From assembly GCA_031413715.1 (NCBI GenBank), contig JANOFO010000003.1, forward strand, positions 75,047-139,046: a stretch of 64,000 nt of DNA, written 5' to 3'. The stretch is from Minisyncoccota bacterium (GTDB taxonomy: Bacteria; Patescibacteriota; Minisyncoccia; Phycocordibacterales; UBA9973). Both the position numbers and the translations under genes were made by a program. Below are positions 46,901 to 57,026 of the stretch, in pieces; positions within the stretch are counted from its first letter, which is position 1, and each line of letters begins with the position of its first letter. The notes below the pieces were generated by a model. The model saw nothing but the letters and a program-made list of their open reading frames with translations. It was not told the DNA's origin and made no database searches.

Positions 46901-46987
46901 GCGGAGACGGTGGGATTTGAACCCACGAGGGCGATTAAACCCTGCCTCCTTAGCAAGGAGGTACGTTAGACCACTCCGACACGTCTC
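46901..46987 (-). tRNA. tRNA-Ser (anticodon GCT), class II with a long variable arm
   Basis: GGAGACG...CCTCC-TTGCTAA-GGAGG-(long variable arm)-GTGGG-TTCAAAT-CCCAC-CGTCTCC-G. Confidence 0.8.
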
Positions 46988-47061
46988 CGTATAACGCTTT
47001 TATACCTTATCATATTTAGCATTTTTACTCAAAAAGTAATTATGCTAGTATGAGAGAATTA

Positions 47062-47196
47062 GGAAGCGTGGATATGAAATATGAACTGCTTCATATTTCA
47101 TCCGTTCGGCAACAAGTCGACAAACTAATGTGCGTCGCACAGGTTTGAGGGAAGGGCCCGGGAGGGCACGAAGACACGCTGACTGAGCAAAGCGAA
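47062..47196 (+). ncRNA. Structured insert starting with a 12-nt duplicate of the following tRNA's 5' end
   Basis: ggaagcgtggat is duplicated at 47062 and 47197. In between are a 12-bp hairpin atgaaatatgaa-ctgc-ttcatatttcat, a GC-rich segment, and cacgct (the inverse of agcgtg). Confidence 0.4.
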
Positions 47197-47282
47197 GGAA
47201 GCGTGGATGAGTGGTTTAAATCAACGGTTTACTAAACCGTCGTCCCTTTAAAGGACCGTGAGTTCGAATCTCACCGCTTCCG
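47197..47282 (+). tRNA. Class II tRNA (long variable arm). The hand fold gives anticodon loop TTACTAA, so the anticodon reads ACT (Ser) with an unusual A34.
   Basis: Acceptor GGAAGCG/CGCTTCC, a 3-bp D-stem, anticodon stem ACGGT/ACCGT, T-arm GTGAG-TTCGAAT-CTCAC. Isotype uncertain. Confidence 0.6.
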
Positions 47283-48890
47283 CATAGTAATACTTTCAGG
47301 CATGAAAGAAACATTCTGCCTTGATACATAAGTACCTTTATCGGTTCGAACTTGAATCAATTCTTGTTCGGCCTTTTTTAGATTCTCGAATATGAATTTG
47401 AACGGCATATGCAAATCTATAACGAGTTTCTGGTCTTTTATGAGGAGGTTCGAACCAAGACATGAAAAAATGGCTCGCTTAGTTTGCAAGTCTCCCTTTT
47501 GGAACCAGATTTGCGCATAGCGTGCGAAATTAAATGTTCTCTCGCTTAGTTCCATCCATTGTTCCTTAGCCTTGCCGTAGGCCTCTAATTCGGTCTCTAG
47601 GGCGTGTTTCTCCTTCACTAGGCCATTCTTGAGCATCTTGTAATCCTCATTGGTTATAAGCTCATTTTGGGTATTCTCTGCGGAAGTGTATTTAAGCAAC
47701 AAGCTATTTAACTGCGTATCAATTTCAGAAAGCCGCTTCTGCTTGTTAAGCAAAACTTGATGGTATGATTGAGCCTCATTTGAGCGTACTTCATGCAAAT
47801 ACTTTATTGCCCATTGCTGAAATCTTTCAGAAATAGTTATTCCGGAAATCAAAGTGTCAATTTGAGCGGTTAAAGATTCTAGTCTGACACTTCTCTCCGC
47901 ACAGTTCTTGTCTATTCTTTTCGTGCAGTGATAAAAAATATAAGTGTGGGTGTTACCATTCTTTTGTCTTTTTGTTTTTATCTCCGCAGTTATCATTGCT
48001 CCGCAACTTCCACACTTCATTAATCCTGTGAATGCGAAGCTGTGTTTCTTAGGTTTCGGTTTTCCTTTCTTACCGAGAATCACTTGAGCGCGTTCATACT
48101 CCTCATCACTTATCATTGCTTCATGATTACCTTTTTTATTTTCTTCGTTATCAGAATATCCTGCATAAAATCTATTAGAGAATAGCCTGTATACCCCTGC
48201 CTTCCCTAAAGACTTACCTTTATATTTTTTTGTCGTGCGAGTTCTTAAATGAAATTCATTATTGGCAATATCGAGAATTTGCATCACCGTATAATTTCCG
48301 GACAAGAGCATTTGCCACATCCGCTTTACAATATCGAAACGCTCAGGGTCATTAACTATGATGTTGTCTCCTTTATCGCGGATAATAGTGTTTAAGTATC
48401 CCAGCGGCGCCCGACCAGGACGCCAGCCCATCTCTATCTTTGTTTTTAATCCTCGTTTTACATTTACACTCAAGTCTCGAATGTATTGATTTGCAATACC
48501 GAATTCCAGATATGAAAGCAAAGAATTGTCTTCTGGATAATAATCTTTCTCTGGAGTTTTAATGTGCTTTATTTCACCTCGTTGAAGCATGCCTATAATT
48601 ATTCCAGCCTCATCTGGGTTTCGAGCTAGCCTATCTAACTTCCAACATAAAATACCACTGGCTTCACCTTTCTTTATTCGACTAATCATTTCATTAAAGA
48701 CCGGACGATTAGCTGGAGTCTTTGCAGATTTCGATTCTCTTAATTTGCTTACAATCTTAAAAGAAAGTCGCGTTCCTAAATCTTCAAGTGCTTTCTCTTG
48801 GGAATCAAGACTGAGAATCTGCCGGTCATCATCTTCTGTGGACTTTCGGCAGTAAATAAAATAATTATTTTGGTTATGTTTTGTGTTCAT
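47271..48890 (-). CDS. Large serine recombinase (resolvase/invertase N-terminal domain, recombinase domain, zinc ribbon, coiled-coil)
   Basis: YCRKSTEDDDRQ...SLDSQ catalytic Ser region, and CGSCGAMI...CTKRIDKNC zinc ribbon. The 3' end overlaps the tRNA 3' end by 12 nt. Confidence 0.85.
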   Translation of the reverse strand: MNTKHNQNNYFIYCRKSTEDDDRQILSLDSQEKALEDLGTRLSFKIVSKLRESKSAKTPANRPVFNEMISRIKKGEASGILCWKLDRLARNPDEAGIIIGMLQRGEIKHIKTPEKDYYPEDNSLLSYLEFGIANQYIRDLSVNVKRGLKTKIEMGWRPGRAPLGYLNTIIRDKGDNIIVNDPERFDIVKRMWQMLLSGNYTVMQILDIANNEFHLRTRTTKKYKGKSLGKAGVYRLFSNRFYAGYSDNEENKKGNHEAMISDEEYERAQVILGKKGKPKPKKHSFAFTGLMKCGSCGAMITAEIKTKRQKNGNTHTYIFYHCTKRIDKNCAERSVRLESLTAQIDTLISGITISERFQQWAIKYLHEVRSNEAQSYHQVLLNKQKRLSEIDTQLNSLLLKYTSAENTQNELITNEDYKMLKNGLVKEKHALETELEAYGKAKEQWMELSERTFNFARYAQIWFQKGDLQTKRAIFSCLGSNLLIKDQKLVIDLHMPFKFIFENLKKAEQELIQVRTDKGTYVSRQNVSFMPESITMRKR

Positions 48891-48891
48891 A

Positions 48892-49101
48892 CTATCTAAG
48901 GATGTAATAAATAATGGTTGGTATCATTAAAAAAATCATTAAGTGATAAAACTCAATCTTCTTTTTTAATTTACCTTCTTTGATAACTAAATGAATTAGT
49001 AATTCGTGAGGAGTTAATTGAAATCTTCTGCAATCTTGCTCAATTTTTTCCTCAGCTCGCATCTCCTCTACTTTCTCTTTTGTGGTTTTTTGATTACCCA
49101 T
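48892..49101 (-). CDS. Small hypothetical protein with a C-terminal TM helix, directly downstream of the recombinase. Its function is unknown; it could be a recombination-directionality factor.
   Basis: ORF only. Start taken at the internal Met MGNQKTTKEK. Confidence 0.3.
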   Translation of the reverse strand: MGNQKTTKEKVEEMRAEEKIEQDCRRFQLTPHELLIHLVIKEGKLKKKIEFYHLMIFLMIPTIIYYILR

Positions 49102-49460
49102 AAAATAATCTAAATTATTTTTAATAGGATAATCGCCAAGAACGCAAAAAGGGACGACTAGAGCCTGCGTCCCACAAGATTGAATTGCACAAGGCAACCA
49201 ATTGTGGAGGATAGTCGCCCCTTTCAGCCCGCAATTGGGCTTCCAAGAAGCAAAATACCCTGTGCACTTATTCAAACTTGTAGGACGCAAGTTAATTATA
49301 CCACCCCGGCAAGATATGTTAAATGGTTAACTGAACTCATAGTAATAACTATAATTAACTAATATAGTTAACAATATAGAATAACTTACTGTATAGGTAA
49401 CTATTAGCTATATAATAGATTTCCTATTAAGTGAAAGAGTTATCTATACCTTTGCCAGGA

Positions 49461-49790
49461 TTAGAATACTTGGTTAGCTTCCTCGTCATTGAGCTTATAA
49501 ATCTTCTTATAATGCTCTTTATTCGCGGCGTCGTAAGTGTCCCATATTTTAGTTTCCAGTTTATCCCAAATTTCTTTGTCGGGAGCAAAAAATATAGGAT
49601 GATACCTCCCGCCTCCGAGATACGCCGGTGGGGTTAGCCAGAGTTTTTGGCCTCTAGGGTTTTCGTATTGAGATTCCTGAATTCGGAATCCCTTCACCAG
49701 GAAATCACCAAAATCCACACCAACAATTGCCTTAACTTTACCTTCGGTGATTTTGACCTTAATTTTTACTTCATCGAAATCAATTTTCAT
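49461..49790 (-). CDS. SpoVG-like small protein (tentative)
   Basis: VKAIVGVDFGDFLVKGFRIQ...GRYHPIFFAPDK resembles the SpoVG fold. Confidence 0.3.
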   Translation of the reverse strand: MKIDFDEVKIKVKITEGKVKAIVGVDFGDFLVKGFRIQESQYENPRGQKLWLTPPAYLGGGRYHPIFFAPDKEIWDKLETKIWDTYDAANKEHYKKIYKLNDEEANQVF

Positions 49791-49960
49791 TTTTCATAAT
49801 GGTTACTCCATTCACTTTTAATAGGCTTGTATGTCGCATCAAAAAGCACCAGCAAGTTTATTGCTTGTTCTGTGGCAATTTCATTAGAGATTTGTTCCCC
49901 AAATTCCTCGCCCCAAATATTCTTAAATTCTAAGAGTGCTTTTTCTGACAACATAAAAGT
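49787..49960 (-). CDS. 57-aa helical protein coupled to the downstream gene by an ATGA overlap
   Basis: Manual translation: MLSEKALLEFKNIWGEEFGEQISNEIATEQAINLLVLFDATYKPIKSEWSNHYEK. It falls below the ORF-track length cutoff. Confidence 0.3.
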   Translation of the reverse strand, partial: TFMLSEKALLEFKNIWGEEFGEQISNEIATEQAINLLVLFDATYKPIKSEWSNHYEK

Positions 49961-50364
49961 CCGCTCTTGACCTTATAGGTTTCCACTGGGATGGCGACCT
50001 ATAAAGTCAGCAACGGACTTCATATATTCCCCCAGTGGAATTACCGCAATCAAAACAAAAACCGCATTTATCTTGCGGTTCTTGCTGAAACTTCCATAGC
50101 AAAACCCACTAAGATAAATGGATTCGGCATTGGAAGTTTCTCTTGCTAATTAAATTAGGGAGAAACAACTGCTCGAGATTATTTAAGAAATATCACTGGC
50201 CTCCTCATGAAGAACCACCAATGACTTGTACCGAAAATAATCTGTTGCGATGTTTTGATTTTTCAAGAACTAATTTAAGTATACCAACCATGTCAATAAA
50301 TTTCATCCACGAAAAATACCCTTTGTTTATTAGGTATTTTACGAGAAAGTATTAGAATGATTAT

Positions 50365-51903
50365 ATGGCAGACTCAAATACCCAAAACCCACAAATTTAC
50401 GAAATGTATAAACCTCTGAGAAACAGAATGCGTGAATTAAATATCATAGAATCCTTATATGTTATTTGGGCTTATTGTAATCACATGCAGTTTACCAACT
50501 CAAAAATACCTTCGGATATTCAAGTTGATAATTCCTTTCTTAACCCTACACATTGGGCTAAGCGTAATATATACGAATGGGAACTTGAGGTCTTAACGCG
50601 AGAAGTAATTTTGCACGGCGAGGATGCTGGAAGCAGAAAAACACTAAAGAGGTGGGACACTCTAGTCAACGCAGTTAATACATTAAAATCTATTGAGAAT
50701 AACATTGGTGGAATTTTTGTAAATAAAAATAATATCCTCTCCGAGTTATTTAGAATCACCCATCGGCAGTTTCCGTGGCAACAACTTAGACCCACGCATG
50801 AGCATATTATCCGTTACTATAAAATTTTTAACTTTCCACCGGTGAGTACTATCGTAGAACAAACTACGGGACTTACCACAAGACAAATATATTTTCTTCA
50901 TATGGCATTATTAGGTGCATTTACTAAAAGCGCAAAATTAAACTTGCCCTTGGAAATTTCTTTACACGGTTTTACTAAAGAACAAGCAAACAGTTTTGCG
51001 AAATCTTTTGCTAAACCAATCGATGATATTAGAGAAATGGTAAAAAATTCTCAACAGTATAATGATAAGTTTGCATATAACAACCAGAGTATTCACGAAT
51101 ATCCCTTAATTACTTTCCAAGAGAACGGCAGAGAAATAGCTATGTGCCCAATGCCAACTTTGCTATTTTGGCGTGCTAGTAGTGGTTTATATTACAAATT
51201 GATAAATCAACCAGGTTTCGATAAAGCATTTGGAGAGTCTTTCGAAAAATATACAGGTGAAGTTTTACAAAAAGCAGTACAATCCAAAAACATTTCTGTA
51301 ATACCCTCTGTAAAATACAACACCGGAAAAGGTAGAGACGAAGAGACCACAGACTGGATATTAAAAGATACAAATGGATTATTGTTTATAGAATGTAAAA
51401 CCAAAAGAGTTCCTTATACGGCAAAATTTGAATTAGACGCAACACTTGTAGCTACCGAATTTGAGAAGATGGCAAAAATTATTGTACAGACCTATAAATC
51501 AATTAAAGATTACCAAGATGGTCATTACCCAAACTTGCCTTTTGAAAAAGGAAAATCCGTCTACCCACTGGTCGTTACTTTAGAGGAGTGGTATGTTTTT
51601 CAAGGAGATTTTATAAAACCGATAAAGGAAGCTGTACTGAGGTTGTTTAACAAGGAATCACTTCCAGAATCATGGCTAGAAGAAATGCCATATCAAATTT
51701 GCTCAATACAAGAATTTGAGGTTGCAATTCAAACTATTAATCATACTGGAATTAAAGAGTTCATGGAGAAAAAAGTTATGGATAAAGAGAAAAAAACTTG
51801 GTCTATTAATACTTTTGCATCGTCAGAATTCCCAGAGATTTCAAAAAACTATAAACCACTTTTTGTTGATGAGTTTGATGCCCTGTTCTCATCTTTTCTC
51901 TAG
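50365..51903 (+). CDS. Uncharacterised 512-aa protein with a PD-(D/E)xK-like nuclease motif in its C-terminal half
   Basis: DWILKDTNGLLFIECKTK (a D...E-x-K arrangement). No other recognisable domain. Confidence 0.4.
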   Translation: MADSNTQNPQIYEMYKPLRNRMRELNIIESLYVIWAYCNHMQFTNSKIPSDIQVDNSFLNPTHWAKRNIYEWELEVLTREVILHGEDAGSRKTLKRWDTLVNAVNTLKSIENNIGGIFVNKNNILSELFRITHRQFPWQQLRPTHEHIIRYYKIFNFPPVSTIVEQTTGLTTRQIYFLHMALLGAFTKSAKLNLPLEISLHGFTKEQANSFAKSFAKPIDDIREMVKNSQQYNDKFAYNNQSIHEYPLITFQENGREIAMCPMPTLLFWRASSGLYYKLINQPGFDKAFGESFEKYTGEVLQKAVQSKNISVIPSVKYNTGKGRDEETTDWILKDTNGLLFIECKTKRVPYTAKFELDATLVATEFEKMAKIIVQTYKSIKDYQDGHYPNLPFEKGKSVYPLVVTLEEWYVFQGDFIKPIKEAVLRLFNKESLPESWLEEMPYQICSIQEFEVAIQTINHTGIKEFMEKKVMDKEKKTWSINTFASSEFPEISKNYKPLFVDEFDALFSSFL

Positions 51904-52120
51904 AATAAATTAACCTCTAACAGAGGTCATCCCTTCCATAGATTATTTTGTTGTTTTAGGAACTGGTACCACCTAAATTTCTTTTTTCGAAACAGAGAGA
52001 GGAAGACTTTATACCTCTTTGAGTTAATAACTTTATATATAAATGTATACTCAAATATAATAACGGATAGAAAGATACCCCCTTCTATATTAGCTAATAA
52101 GTAAGTGCTATAATTCCCTT

Positions 52121-53866
52121 ATGAGCTCACAAACCCTGGTTTGTCAAAACTGCAAGAAAGACTTTGTAATAGAGTCAGAAGATTTTAGTTACTACGAAAG
52201 AATCAAGGTTCCAGCTCCAACTTGGTGCGCTGATTGTCGTTTAGTAAGACGCATGTCTTACAGGAATGAAAGAAATTTGTATAAAAGAAAATGCCAAGCT
52301 CAAGGGCACGGAGAAGAAATGATTTCAACTTTCTCTCCTGATAAACCAGATACAATCTATTGTCATACTGCTTGGAATGGAGATAGTTGGGATGCAATGA
52401 ATTACGGACGAGAATATGACTTTTCAAAATCATTTTTTGAACAAATGAGGGAGCTTTGGAAAAGTGTTCCTGATGTGGGGCTATTTAATATAAACCCAGT
52501 AAATAGTGATTATTGTAGCATCACTCAAGACAACAAAAATTGCTATCTAGTTATTGGAGGAGATTTCAACGAAGACTCTTTATATTCTTCCTTCATATTC
52601 CACTCCAAAGAATGCATGGATTGTCATTTAGGCTCAAAAATTGAGAAAAATTACGAAACCACAGACTGCATTTCTTGTTTTAATTTGAAATATAGTCGCT
52701 ACTGTGAAACTTGCTATGATAGCGCTTTCCTCTTCAACTGTCGCAATTGTCATGATTGTTTCGGGTGCGTAAATTTAGTAAACAAAGAATATTGTATTTT
52801 CAACAAACAATACACCAAAGAAGAGTACAAAGAAAAAATGAAGGCGATAGATTTTGGCTCTTTCCAGGATATTCAAAAAACAAAAAAAGAATTTGAGGAG
52901 TTTAGTTTGAAGTTTCCAAGGCGCTTCGCAAAAATAGTAAAATCAGTTGATGTCTCAGGAGATTTTATAGAAAACTCTAAAAAATGTACTTACTGCTTTT
53001 CTGTGTTTGGTGGAGCCGAAGAGAGTAAAAATTTATGGCTCATTTATTCTCAAGTAAAGGATTCTTATGACATAGACCACTCTGGGCTCAACTCCATGGA
53101 ATGTTATGAATCTTCAAGCGTATACCCAGGAAACCAAGTAATGTTTTCTAGGTTTATTTGGGATAGCCATCATATTGAATATTCGTATAACTGTAATAAC
53201 TCTTCATACTTATTTGGCTGTGTAGGGGTAAAGAATAAAAAATATTGCATATTTAATAAACAATACGAGCCAGAGGAATGGAAAGTTATGCGAGAAAAAA
53301 TTATTAGCCACATGAAAGAAATGCCATATAAAGATAGAGGGGGTAGAGTATATTCTTATGGAGAGTTTTTTCCTATTGAACTTTCTCCTTTCGCATACAA
53401 CGAAACAGTAGCTCAGGAGTTAAAACCGCTTGATAAAAAAGAAATAGAAGGTTCTGGATATAACTACGCCGAAAATACTGATAGAAATTACAAAATCGAA
53501 AGAGAATACAAAGATTTGCCTGACAATATAGACCAGGTAGATAAAAACATCTTAAACAAAACAATTAGTTGTGCGCATGGTGGAAATTGTAAGGATGGTT
53601 GTACTCAGGCATTCAAAATTACCGAACCGGAACTTTCTTTTTACAATAATTACAGAATACCCCTCCCTAGAATGTGTCCAAACTGTAGGTACGCGGACAG
53701 GTTAAAACAGAAAAATCCTCTCCATCTCTGGCGCAGGACTTGTATGTGCGACAAAAAGCATTCTAATCACACAGGAAATTGCGATATTGAATTTGAAACT
53801 TCTTATTCCCCTGACCGGCCGGAGATAGTGTATTGTGAAAAATGCTATCAGCAAGAAGTTTACTAG
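52121..53866 (+). CDS. Uncharacterised 581-aa cysteine-rich protein with N- and C-terminal zinc-ribbon-like CxxC pairs and an internal duplication
   Basis: CQNCKK...CADCR at the N-terminus and CPNCR...CEKCYQQ at the C-terminus. The segment ..FGCV..K.YCIFNKQY..EE.K is repeated. Many CxxC/CxC clusters. Confidence 0.5.
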   Translation: MSSQTLVCQNCKKDFVIESEDFSYYERIKVPAPTWCADCRLVRRMSYRNERNLYKRKCQAQGHGEEMISTFSPDKPDTIYCHTAWNGDSWDAMNYGREYDFSKSFFEQMRELWKSVPDVGLFNINPVNSDYCSITQDNKNCYLVIGGDFNEDSLYSSFIFHSKECMDCHLGSKIEKNYETTDCISCFNLKYSRYCETCYDSAFLFNCRNCHDCFGCVNLVNKEYCIFNKQYTKEEYKEKMKAIDFGSFQDIQKTKKEFEEFSLKFPRRFAKIVKSVDVSGDFIENSKKCTYCFSVFGGAEESKNLWLIYSQVKDSYDIDHSGLNSMECYESSSVYPGNQVMFSRFIWDSHHIEYSYNCNNSSYLFGCVGVKNKKYCIFNKQYEPEEWKVMREKIISHMKEMPYKDRGGRVYSYGEFFPIELSPFAYNETVAQELKPLDKKEIEGSGYNYAENTDRNYKIEREYKDLPDNIDQVDKNILNKTISCAHGGNCKDGCTQAFKITEPELSFYNNYRIPLPRMCPNCRYADRLKQKNPLHLWRRTCMCDKKHSNHTGNCDIEFETSYSPDRPEIVYCEKCYQQEVY

Positions 53867-54023
53867 CTCAGAACAGCTTCTGTTTCAGATAGTTTGGGTA
53901 TGAAAAAGTATGTATTTGGATTGCTATAATAGGTTCTAATGTCGTATACTAACCTCCGCAGACAATTTATATCGGAGCGACCTGAGTACCAAAAATAGCA
54001 TATTTGAGTTAAAATAGCTGTAT

Positions 54024-55016
54024 ATGGAAAAACAAAATTTAGGTTTAAAAAACGATACTGTAGATATGGAGAAACCTGAAGTTCAGAATAATTTGGGCTC
54101 TTTATTGAAAGAAAAAGGCATTGAAAATGTGCCTAGGATTAAAACCAACTTCTTCTTTAATAAGCATGCAACCACAGAGGATGGAGAGGCCATCAGTGAA
54201 CGATTAAAAAATACCGACATCTTACTTCAAGAAAATGCAGGTTGGGATCCTGCTCGCCTCGATATTTTCAATAATGTATCAAACGGCATCCTAACGCCCG
54301 AACAGGCAATGGACATGGAGAAACAGAGAGGAAAACCATTCTTCCATGAAGATTTTTATAACGCACTATTAAAAGGTTTGTATAAATCAGAAAAGAAAGT
54401 AATGCTAGTTGATGTTCCAGACGATAATGTAGTCTTCAAAAACCTCATGGGTCTGTTTTCAGGTAACGGCACTTATAATAATCTCATAGACAAGTCCTTG
54501 CCTTATGAAGAAATGTTACGGAGGGTCGGTAATGTATCAAAATTTGAATCTGACATGCAAAAGGCTCGCGAAGATTATATTTTGGAAAATCTTCCAGAAG
54601 CTCTGGTCAAAATATTGAAGCAAAATCCTGAGTTCCAGAAAAAAGAAGATTTGAAGATACTTTTCTCGATGGGAGGTTTTCACACTCGGCTGTATCACGA
54701 GATGAAAAAATCAGGAAATGATGTAAATCGAGAATTTTCAAGTATGCCGTATAAGTTTGATCCTCGGATGGCCGCTGAACGCAATATCCACTTCAGGGGT
54801 ATGGAGAAGTCAAAATATTTATTGCCTAAGATTACCCTCTATCTTCTTCTAAAAAAAGAACTGCCGAATTTAAATATATCAAATAATATTATGTCTGCTT
54901 TTTCTGATGAAAAAATTAAGAATCTCTATGAAAAATACCAAGCAGTTTCTTCCAAAGAGTTCAAAGAATACCTCGAATCGATATTATCAGTATCCGACCC
55001 ATATGTCCCAGTTTAG
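54024..55016 (+). CDS. Hypothetical 330-aa protein. Its last 7 codons and stop lie inside dispersed repeat module M1.
   Basis: Long ORF with no recognisable motif. The C-terminus ...SDPYVPV* is encoded by gacccatatgtcccagtttag, which recurs at the end of the 39065-40072 gene. Confidence 0.5.
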   Translation: MEKQNLGLKNDTVDMEKPEVQNNLGSLLKEKGIENVPRIKTNFFFNKHATTEDGEAISERLKNTDILLQENAGWDPARLDIFNNVSNGILTPEQAMDMEKQRGKPFFHEDFYNALLKGLYKSEKKVMLVDVPDDNVVFKNLMGLFSGNGTYNNLIDKSLPYEEMLRRVGNVSKFESDMQKAREDYILENLPEALVKILKQNPEFQKKEDLKILFSMGGFHTRLYHEMKKSGNDVNREFSSMPYKFDPRMAAERNIHFRGMEKSKYLLPKITLYLLLKKELPNLNISNNIMSAFSDEKIKNLYEKYQAVSSKEFKEYLESILSVSDPYVPV

Positions 55017-55158
55017 CTCTCAAAAATCTCCCGAACCAGTCTTATAGGACCTCGTGAATTCGGTACTGAACCCACAATGCCCACATTCATCACGACGTAG
55101 CTTTAGCGAAGTCGGATTCGCCAAATCTATATCACGATTTTAAGCTAAAATACAATAT

Positions 55159-56139
55159 ATGAGCGAAAAACCTCGACACAAACGTAGATTCAAAAATCCT
55201 GAGAAATGTTTTCAGACTAAAGGATTCCATTTTGCATCGGTTCGATGGATCCTCACTCGAATATTTAAAAATTCTTACAAATTGGGAATAGACTTGCCAG
55301 AGACACATGTGGTTTCTAAGAAAGAAGCCCTTTCTTTAAAAGAAAAATATCATAATGTTCCATCTATAACTTGGCTTGGTCATGCTTCATTTCTCTTAAA
55401 AATTGGAGATGTACAAATATTAACTGACCCGATTTTATTTGGTACCCCTGCAACACCATTACTAAAAAGTTTAAAAAGGTTACCGAGCCCACTTCAAGCA
55501 ATGGAATTAACTGGGGTAAACATACTACTCCTTTCCCATGAGCATGCTGATCATGTACATCATCCCTCTTTGGCAAGTCTCTTAAAAAAAGAAGATATCC
55601 AACCTATTGTTTCACTTGGCATAGGCAAAAAGATACTTAAGCATAAATTCAAAGAATCTATTGAGCTTGATTGGTTTGAAATATACAAAGTAGGTAATAC
55701 GATAACGATTACCGCTGTACCCGCAGTTCATTATTCTGATTTCACTAATAGCACATTGTGGTCTGGATTTATTATTTCTTTTACAGATCAAGAGGGAAAG
55801 ATAAAGAAAATATATTTTGGCGGAGATACTGGCTATGGTCCATTCATAACAAGAGATATAGCTCCATACGGTCCATTTGATATTGCCCTTATTGGAGTGG
55901 GCGCCTTCGAACTTCCCTATCAATCTCGCGCGCCAGTTGTGCATACGAACCCAGAACAAGCTGTTAATATTGCCAAAGAAATACAAGCTCAAAAAATTAT
56001 TGGGATGCATTGGGGAACAATGAGAATGGCAGATGAAGTTCCACACACATTATTCCCTCGTATGATTCAGCATGCAAATGAGATCGGATATCAAGGAGAA
56101 ATAAACATGCTTCGTATCGGGGAAACCATTGCAATGTAA
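55159..56139 (+). CDS. MBL-fold metallo-hydrolase
   Basis: LLLSHEHADHVH (HxHxDH) and ITWLGHASFLLK. Confidence 0.85.
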   Translation: MSEKPRHKRRFKNPEKCFQTKGFHFASVRWILTRIFKNSYKLGIDLPETHVVSKKEALSLKEKYHNVPSITWLGHASFLLKIGDVQILTDPILFGTPATPLLKSLKRLPSPLQAMELTGVNILLLSHEHADHVHHPSLASLLKKEDIQPIVSLGIGKKILKHKFKESIELDWFEIYKVGNTITITAVPAVHYSDFTNSTLWSGFIISFTDQEGKIKKIYFGGDTGYGPFITRDIAPYGPFDIALIGVGAFELPYQSRAPVVHTNPEQAVNIAKEIQAQKIIGMHWGTMRMADEVPHTLFPRMIQHANEIGYQGEINMLRIGETIAM

Positions 56140-56145
56140 TTTATC

Positions 56146-56226
56146 TACTGTGACTCACATACCTCAATAACTACTCAAGAAAAGTGATAAAATACCCTTA
56201 CAAGGGTCGAGAGCGTGGGTACTGAA
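56146..56226. repeat. Dispersed repeat X (copy 2), inverted relative to 40152-40232
   Basis: It begins 7 nt after the stop of the MBL gene, as copy 1 does after the 40237 gene. Confidence 0.65.
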
Positions 56227-56279
56227 CTAACATGGCCACACAACAAAAATAATTTAGGAAAATCTGATATACTATTCTT

Positions 56280-57026
56280 ATGGATGACCTTGAGAAATTA
56301 AAAGTTGAGAATGAGGAACTAAAAAAGGTAAACGCGGTCAGATCGGATTTGATTTCTATTTCTGCCCATCAGCTCCGCACTTCACTCTCGGCGCTCAAAT
56401 GGATTCTTAGGATGTTTGCAGATAAAGACCTCGGCAAGATTACCCAAGAGCAGGAAGGATTTATCGAGAAAGCACTAGAAAGCAATGAACGCATGATAGT
56501 GCTCGTCAACGATCTGCTGACGCTCAATCATTCTGATGATGCGAGTATTCCATTTAACTTTAAACAGGTAAATATCATAGGACTGCTTGAAGAGACATTG
56601 TTTGAATTCTATGGCGAGACTCACAAGAAAAATATCGAGCTTATATTCATAAAACCCACTACCGATATTCCCCTTGTTCGCTGTGATAGTGAAATGATTC
56701 GAGTGGTCATGCAAAACCTGATCGAGAACTCCATAAAATATAGCGATCAGAACGACAAAGTTTTCGTATCACTCAAATACAAGGCGGAAACAAATACAAT
56801 CGACATATCAATTCACGACACCGGTATCGGAATCAAGCAGGAAGACCAAGACAAGATTTTTAATAAATTCTTCCGCACTAGAAATGCAATCGAGAAGGAT
56901 AATATCGGCTCAGGCTTAGGATTGTATACCACAAAGAACATAATTCTGCGTCATAAAGGGAAAATCTGGTTCGAAAGTGCTCCCGATTCAGGAACGACCT
57001 TTTATGTTACATTACCTATAAATTAG
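56280..57026 (+). CDS. Soluble sensor histidine kinase (HisKA + HATPase_c, no TM or sensor domain)
   Basis: H-box ISAHQLRTSLSALKW, N/G boxes DTGIGIKQEDQDKIFNKFFR and GSGLGLYTTK. Confidence 0.85.
   Translation: MDDLEKLKVENEELKKVNAVRSDLISISAHQLRTSLSALKWILRMFADKDLGKITQEQEGFIEKALESNERMIVLVNDLLTLNHSDDASIPFNFKQVNIIGLLEETLFEFYGETHKKNIELIFIKPTTDIPLVRCDSEMIRVVMQNLIENSIKYSDQNDKVFVSLKYKAETNTIDISIHDTGIGIKQEDQDKIFNKFFRTRNAIEKDNIGSGLGLYTTKNIILRHKGKIWFESAPDSGTTFYVTLPIN

Follow-up and report, generated by a model that had tools for sequence, protein, structure and literature searches.

A candidate GAPS1-type anti-phage nuclease gene on a serine-recombinase island at a tRNA gene

An island inserted at a tRNA gene

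The gene that we studied lies in a window of 64,000 nucleotides (the whole stretch of DNA that was analyzed) as an open reading frame on the forward strand (50365..51903) that starts with ATG and encodes a protein of 512 amino acids, just as the initial annotation had described it. Upstream of this gene and divergent from it lies the gene of a large serine recombinase (47271..48890, reverse strand; Pfam domains Resolvase, Recombinase, and Zn_ribbon_recom). Downstream and on the same strand as the 512-residue ORF follow 3 further genes (52121..56139, forward strand) that encode a cysteine-rich protein of 581 residues, an unknown protein of 330 residues, and an MBL-fold hydrolase of 326 residues. 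The recombinase gene reaches a tRNA gene (47197..47283, forward strand; predicted by ARAGORN and matching the Rfam tRNA model with 56.8 bits), the 3′ end of which is the point of insertion.

The extent of the insertion was determined by comparison with an empty site. Searching metagenome contigs with the 3′ end of the window’s tRNA gene yielded a related contig of 169 kb, apparently from groundwater (L115), in which 2 tRNAs are directly followed by genes for a histidine kinase, a response regulator, and RecG, the same genes that start at position 56280 in the window. The match boundaries (window 47294 corresponding to contig position 2042 and window 56259 to contig position 2046), together with an alignment of the junction, delimit an integrated island of ca. 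8.97 kb (~47285..56258) that begins directly after the ...CCGCA of the tRNA and comprises the recombinase gene, 2 or 3 small ORFs, the 512-residue ORF, and the genes of the 581-residue protein, the 330-residue protein, and the MBL-fold hydrolase. Since this empty-site-defined island holds both the recombinase and the gene under study, the earlier description of this gene as recombinase-associated cargo is correct. The gene had also been called the first gene of a cargo trio, which is not how the locus presents itself: With the MBL-fold gene, 4 larger genes follow the recombinase module, and comparison across loci revealed no functional tie among them. Repeat searches of the island found no direct repeats of the att type, as is expected for a serine recombinase. 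Due to its large family and housekeeping surroundings elsewhere, we had also considered the 581-residue protein’s gene as part of the chromosomal backbone but dropped this idea because the empty-site comparison places it inside the insert.

The genes flanking the island as well as the closest relatives of the 512-residue and 581-residue proteins suggest Patescibacteria (Paceibacteria-like) as the host, and the genome bearing the island is probably that of a groundwater member of the Patescibacteria. Comparable arrangements were found elsewhere: Homologues of the recombinase lie near relatives of the 512-residue protein in around 10 independent loci, mostly of Patescibacteria, and in one of them (L005), a recombinase of 43% identity is encoded beside the relative in an equal layout. 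At the recombinase loci whose contig reaches far enough (L006, L007, L009, and L014), the recombinase gene borders with its 3′ end on a tRNA gene as it does in the window, and these tRNAs are specific for Gln, His, Glu, and Asn.

Catalytic motif, predicted fold, and homology to GapS1

The initial annotation had noted a D-x(10)-E-C-K motif in the C-terminal half of the protein. The residues are indeed present and conserved, but their spacing is different: The motif-bearing peptide DWILKDTNGLLFIECKTK (encoded by 51352..51405) contains the predicted catalytic motif D330-x12-E343-C-K345 (51352..51399, forward strand), with x7 if counted from the second Asp. Taken by itself, a loose D...[DE]xK pattern is at chance level and proves nothing, with 2 instances of D-x(8-20)-[DE]-x-K in this protein versus a mean of 2.3 in shuffled versions, 636 out of 1,000 of which reach 2; a stricter version of the motif that includes a hydrophobic strand context was seen in 1.9% of shuffles of the protein. 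We nevertheless regard the motif as real because D330, E343, and K345 are conserved across the family. All 3 residues are invariant among 40 relatives with 36% to 45% identity to the protein, and among 247 full-length family members, D330 and K345 are found in every single one and E343 in 246. Conservation is also high for Q375-x-Y377 (51487..51495, forward strand; Q375 in 239 and Y377 in 246 of the 247), which may have a role judging from this conservation and its place in the predicted structure on the helix after the ExK strand. In the N-terminal half, each of the residues composing the motif E127-x2-R130-x2-H133-x-Q135-F136-x-W138 (50743..50778, forward strand) is retained in 214 to 239 of these proteins.

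An AlphaFold2 model of the protein built from the 40-sequence alignment (pLDDT 91.3, pTM 0.90) divides it into 2 parts. Residues 1–283 (50365..51213, forward strand) form a mostly helical domain, seen in the secondary structure of the model and in the alignment to GapS1 (see below), which we regard as a putative sensor of phage proteins or regulatory domain. Residues 284–512 (51214..51900, forward strand) are assigned to a PD-(D/E)xK nuclease domain by the topology of the model, structure searches with Foldseek, and a weak PADLOC match. Its elements follow the αβββαβ order of the restriction-endonuclease fold (helix 285–304; strands 325–327, 331–334, and 338–345; helix 359–384; strand 398–405), with the strand 331–334 directly preceded by D330 and the strand 338–345 ending in E343-x-K345. 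The best match of the whole model in the PDB was the defence nuclease Upx (9wuf; E 1.3e-6 over 550 columns), and further matches included Cdn1, VC1899, R.BspD6I, SduA, R2 endonuclease domains, Can2, and HamA, so that the meaningful fold matches are PD-(D/E)xK nucleases without exception. The proposal to combine structure prediction with a search of structure databases has therefore led to this nuclease class, with Upx ranking first. Taken together with the profile alignment to GapS1 described below, model topology and Foldseek matches bear out the previously suspected restriction-endonuclease fold of the C-terminal half, and we consider it close to certain that this predicted domain has the PD-(D/E)xK fold, with the geometry of the site read from the order of secondary structure elements and from alignments.

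The N-terminal half had been described as having no recognizable domain. This holds for Pfam, which gave no match for the protein at all, but not beyond it, since this half is conserved, aligns with GapS1, and matches the fold of Upx. Modeled alone, the N-terminal domain reached a pLDDT of 91.0 and matched only Upx (9wuf) in the PDB above noise, with a probability of 1.00 and a TMq of 0.50; neither a DNA-binding fold nor a CARF fold was found above noise in the same search. A fold search of the viral structures in BFVD gave nothing at E ≤ 0.001 and generic nuclease folds only.

Other sequence searches were similarly unspecific. Sequence searches of the PDB with the protein, its profile, or a GapS1 profile returned only noise, matches in PHROGs were marginal, and PADLOC reported a weak match to CARF_PDDEXK limited to residues 290–349, while its 2023 models recognized neither the protein nor its relatives as a defence system. 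In the source annotations, the protein and its relatives are either named “hypothetical protein” or are without annotation. A clear match was obtained with the NCBIfam model NF047931 (“antiphage_GapS1”), which aligned with residues 89–471 of the protein over model positions 55–439 out of 455 (80.3 bits, E 1.3e-22), though without reaching the curated cutoff of 320 bits. Nine relatives from different phyla and from plasmids also match this model with 45 to 98 bits, and the matches of all 10 proteins span approximately positions 60–440 of the 455 with E values from 1e-12 to 5e-28.

A bridge from the protein to the GapS1 family was provided by a tblastn search against phage records. The single, weak match (L089:845-2422) is a true GapS1 that scores 495.8 bits with NF047931 and shares 99% identity with a protein of Pseudomonas proteolytica to which NCBI gives the name “GapS1 family protein”. 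BLASTP aligns it with the 512-residue protein at 23% identity over 336 amino acids (E 4e-10), and D330, E343, and K345 face D, D, and K in this alignment. For comparison, the experimentally validated GAPS1 homologues of E. coli are themselves only 24% to 29% identical to the GAPS1 of Vibrio. The profile–profile search that had been suggested was informative as well: Using hhalign, a profile of 40 relatives aligned with a profile of 28 GapS1 proteins at 99.6% probability (E 2.1e-24) over 465 columns. This alignment spans positions 4–505 of the query and 18–507 of the template, and the homology therefore takes in the N-terminal half, in which the conserved motif of our protein aligns with the GapS1 segment bearing the conserved residues R111, Q116, Q117, and Q121. 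By these comparisons, the protein is almost certainly a full-length remote homologue of GAPS1. Because its 80 bits are far below the 320-bit cutoff, we place it in a sister clade outside the curated NF047931 model, and the function of this clade could have shifted from that of GAPS1.

Family distribution and possible functions

A scan of species-representative genomes yielded 80 loci with relatives of the protein. These are patchily spread across many lineages of Patescibacteria, Nitrospirota, Alpha-, Beta-, and Gammaproteobacteria, Bacteroidota, and one Woesearchaeote; relatives were also found on 24 plasmids, while none was found among the viral contigs of IMG/VR, which counts neither for nor against a role in defence. 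The gene thus spreads horizontally. With clusters formed at 50% identity, an exhaustive profile search retrieved 3,144 of them at E ≤ 1e-3, of which 737 also pass E ≤ 1e-30, and the best 150 of the 3,144 clusters are mostly proteins of ca. 500 amino acids with one matched stretch each.

No recurrent neighbor gene was detected when we clustered the ORFs over about 83 to 84 loci with relatives, and the 150 flanking ORFs at positions ±1 and ±2 matched 141 different Pfam families. Methyltransferases, a type II restriction endonuclease, PtuA-like ATPases, integrases, and resolvases occur occasionally in these neighborhoods, and recognizable defence genes are a minority of the genes flanking the relatives. 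Since no neighbor is conserved across loci, the gene looks like a self-contained, stand-alone single-protein unit, comparable to GAPS1 in this respect. Regarding the other cargo of the window’s island, PADLOC gave no match for any of the 3 proteins, no other locus encoding a relative has the MBL-fold gene, and a tblastn search of plasmids with the 581-residue and 330-residue proteins gave no match.

GAPS1 is a single protein that loses its defence activity with D313A/K328A substitutions (Mahata et al., bioRxiv 10.1101/2023.03.28.534373), and the predicted catalytic site of our protein aligns with these positions. Phage T7 escapes it via mutations in the capsid protein Gp10, and co-expression of Gp10 and GAPS1 causes growth arrest without killing; no nucleic-acid substrate of GAPS1 was reported in the literature that we searched. 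Upx, in turn, is a single-protein defence nuclease that is monomeric, has the active site residues D1161, E1176, and K1178, shows Mg-dependent activity on single-stranded DNA, and was reported to be a sensor of phage terminase (PMC13099982; PMC13601566). Full-length homology to the experimentally validated GAPS1 family makes a role in defence or growth arrest the best reading of the gene, and we consider it fairly probable that it encodes a stand-alone GAPS1-type anti-phage nuclease in which a phage-protein trigger would unleash nuclease activity and result in growth arrest. Defence activity, trigger, substrate, and outcome are extrapolated here from this homology and from the literature. Since GAPS1 and Upx have been described as outlined above, we propose that the N-terminal domain would sense a late phage protein. 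This helical domain of ca. 280 residues would keep the nuclease inactive as long as no abundant late protein of the phage is bound to it. Binding of such a protein (capsid protein in the case of GAPS1, terminase in the case of Upx) would release the PD-(D/E)xK domain with D330, E343, and K345, which would then cut nucleic acid. The infected cell would then halt its growth and leave the phage’s infection cycle incomplete. An earlier suggestion that the protein is an effector of a defence or abortive infection system is thus upheld as far as defence and growth arrest are concerned, but not in the sense of an effector serving a gene trio.

This reading has to be weighed against several others. 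The protein could be a solitary restriction-type endonuclease such as a modification-dependent type IV enzyme, with an N-terminal domain that reads foreign DNA directly and without a phage-protein trigger. Such a function would be in line with the fold matches to R.BspD6I, Nt.BspD6I, and SdaI, with the single-gene layout that suits type IV enzymes, and with the few relatives that adjoin DNA methyltransferases or, in one case, a type II restriction endonuclease. However, methyltransferase domains are encoded by only about 3 of the 150 flanking ORFs and by none in the window’s island, and the restriction-modification pair located beside one relative (L002) is already complete. Homology to GAPS1, for which a capsid protein acts as the trigger, moreover extends over both halves of the protein, and the N-terminal domain’s lack of any match to a DNA-binding fold above noise also speaks against direct DNA reading, so that we judge this alternative to be improbable though worth keeping in mind. 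A housekeeping nuclease of DNA repair or recombination is the least credible option. Many repair enzymes are found among PD-(D/E)xK nucleases, and weak fold matches to Bax1 and Holliday-junction resolvases point in this direction, but the gene is missing from the closely related genome with the empty site, its distribution across phyla is patchy, and its neighborhood changes from locus to locus.

Two further alternatives explain the gene by its place on the island. The nuclease might serve the island itself, either as an addiction-type toxin that stabilizes the element or as a nuclease participating in its transfer or integration, and this idea would fit with the large serine recombinase lying close by in the roughly 10 independent loci, in most cases on the upstream side and in divergent orientation as in the window. 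Yet no such recombinase lies within 8 kb of the relative at ca. 70 out of 80 loci, no conserved antitoxin-like partner was found, and we know of no large serine recombinase that needs an accessory nuclease, which makes a function of this kind quite unlikely. Alternatively, the protein could be the nuclease effector of a 3-gene system together with the 581-residue and 330-residue proteins. All 3 genes share one strand and one island, and the 581-residue protein shows a weak match to treble-clef zinc fingers, but the genes of its 2 supposed partners are found in none of the 84 other loci with a relative, and downstream of the relative, the islands of other genomes contain other genes. In addition, over 6,000 Patescibacteria proteins make up the family of the 581-residue protein, and this family occurs in housekeeping contexts without the nuclease gene. 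The 3 genes are also separated by gaps of 217 bp (after the nuclease gene) and 157 bp (after the gene of the 581-residue protein), and the 217-bp gap contains a hairpin directly 3′ of the nuclease gene’s stop codon as well as a promoter-like site, though the counts in these scans equal those of shuffled sequences and are weak evidence. We therefore regard a 3-gene system as very unlikely.

If the gene encodes a stand-alone GAPS1-type nuclease as we favor, its link to GAPS1 provides a testable function for an unannotated family of ca. 3,100 clusters at 50% identity. Patescibacteria are symbionts with small genomes, and apart from restriction-modification, few defence systems are on record for them to our knowledge. 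For their immunity, the finding would mean that small serine-recombinase islands targeting tRNA genes repeatedly carry a GAPS1-like gene, and the similarity in fold to Upx hints at a way in which GAPS1-type proteins might recognize proteins of phages. More speculatively, a single ancestral module composed of a helical sensor and a PD-(D/E)xK domain may have given rise to the clade studied here, to canonical GAPS1, and to each of the 2 halves of Upx. Our clade would then be the smallest version of a wide superfamily whose members detect conserved structural or packaging proteins of phages and, in Patescibacteria, one of the main portable immune genes, which large serine recombinases would carry from one tRNA gene to another, with a trigger and a substrate that could differ from those of GAPS1. 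We view this scenario as possible but would rather bet against it as a whole.

Comparison with known defence systems

Several known groups of nucleases resemble the protein in part. We rejected its assignment to type II restriction-modification because no cognate methyltransferase is conserved next to it. An analogy to the DUF4263 domain of Shedu, as drawn in the initial annotation, does not carry as far as membership. Shedu is likewise a single-gene defence system with a PD-(D/E)xK nuclease, but its N-terminal region is unlike that of our protein, neither Pfam nor PADLOC gave a DUF4263 or SduA match, and the Foldseek matches to SduA (E 0.046) and to the nuclease domain of Shedu (E 0.11) cover the nuclease core only; membership was therefore rejected. 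The CARF nucleases (Card1/VC1899, Can2, and Cdn1) have a similar nuclease domain and occupy ranks 2, 3, 10, and 32 among the Foldseek matches. However, the N-terminal half of our protein is helical and unrelated to theirs, and its genomic context shows no CRISPR or cyclic-oligonucleotide signaling components. With no N-terminal CARF domain and a PADLOC match limited to residues 290–349, the protein was not assigned to this group either.

The resemblance to Upx (PDB 9wuf; Zhou et al. 2026; Evans et al. 2026) goes further. Similarity of the folds extends past the nuclease core, and both proteins appear to combine a large sensor region and a PD-(D/E)xK domain with a D...ExK motif in a single polypeptide. 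Yet Upx comprises ca. 1,200 to 1,270 residues organized as NTD, MD, and CTD with 2 nuclease-type domains (PMC13099982; PMC13601566), whereas our protein is a single module of 512 amino acids. Membership in Upx was rejected on the grounds of this size and the lack of 2 nuclease-type modules, and neither the PADLOC models nor sequence searches of the PDB gave a sequence-level match between the two.

Closest of all is GAPS1 of Vibrio parahaemolyticus (WP_005477165.1), which is likewise a single protein of ca. 500 amino acids. In both proteins, the catalytic Asp and Lys are 15 residues apart (D330 and K345 in ours, D313 and K328 in GAPS1), they have a conserved helix before the catalytic motif (FG-SF-xYVG) and an N-terminal R..QF..Q motif in common, and both are encoded on mobile islands without a partner gene. 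They differ in that our protein is only ~23% identical to a true member of the GapS1 family and has an ExK where the GapS1 consensus is DxK. While ca. 78% of the GAPS1 homologues described in the original study come from Klebsiella pneumoniae genomes (10.1101/2023.03.28.534373), the clade of our protein is found mainly in Patescibacteria, Nitrospirota, and Alpha- and Betaproteobacteria, and the gene in the window was moved by a serine recombinase at a tRNA gene and not by a GMT trio. Defence has been demonstrated by experiment for GAPS1, whereas our clade is known from sequence and structural model. The kind of system is thus already known, and the protein is a divergent, unannotated representative of the GAPS1 type that is mechanistically unsurprising. 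Modestly interesting are 2 points that it adds to this picture, the recurrent serine-recombinase mini-islands at tRNA sites of Patescibacteria and the fold link between GAPS1-type proteins and Upx.

A tRNA gene whose 3' end may be a variable hotspot

For the tRNA gene at the insertion point of the island (47197-47283, plus strand), ARAGORN predicted a tRNA-Ser whose anticodon, ACT, is unusual; the gene also matched the Rfam tRNA family at 56.8 bits. A convergent tRNA-Ser(GCT) gene lies about 200 bp away (46901-46988). When window positions 47284 and 56291-56492 were compared with related contigs, we found that L117 and L105 carry inserts of ~0.45 kb and ~1.5 kb separating this same tRNA from the histidine kinase gene, which suggests that its 3' end is a variable hotspot. 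The first 12 nt of the insertion-point tRNA (GGAAGCGTGGAT) are also present as a second copy ~134 bp upstream, at about 47063-47074.

Close to the right end of the island, a 20-nt direct repeat beginning GGTACTGAAC flanks the gene of the MBL-fold hydrolase (55062-55081 and 56218-56237; copies 80% identical). In the alignment of the window with the empty-site contig that places the island ends, the right copy pairs loosely with the T-arm region of the tRNA. The repeat could be an att-like remnant or could mark a nested module.

Other proteins encoded by the island

The large serine recombinase gene is adjoined by a 132-aa ORF (48892-49290, minus strand) whose first ~36 residues share 89% identity with a recombinase-adjoining ORF in a Saccharibacteria locus (L021, 2472-2579), and which may encode a small protein conserved among such islands, for example a regulator or a directionality factor. 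For a 109-aa ORF (49461-49790, minus strand), the Pfam match to SpoVG (E = 1.7e-5, 25 bits) stayed under the 29.6-bit cutoff.

The 581-aa Cys-rich protein (52121-53866, plus strand) contains internal repeats of the form C..C.DCFGC...KYCIFNKQY and has more than 6000 homologues in Patescibacteria, of which the best 120 listed are each 52-80% identical to it. In other genomes, the protein is present as tandem paralogues adjoining DnaK, GrpE, and DnaJ, and also adjoining TrwB/TraG-like ATPases.

GapS1 on a phage-labelled scaffold

A GapS1 protein is encoded at 845-2422 of an unverified 5.9-kb scaffold from human faeces that is labelled "Bacteriophage sp." (MT837992.1). This scaffold is either a fragment of a prophage or island or else a wrongly labelled bacterial contig; its GapS1 protein is 99% identical to a protein of Pseudomonas proteolytica.
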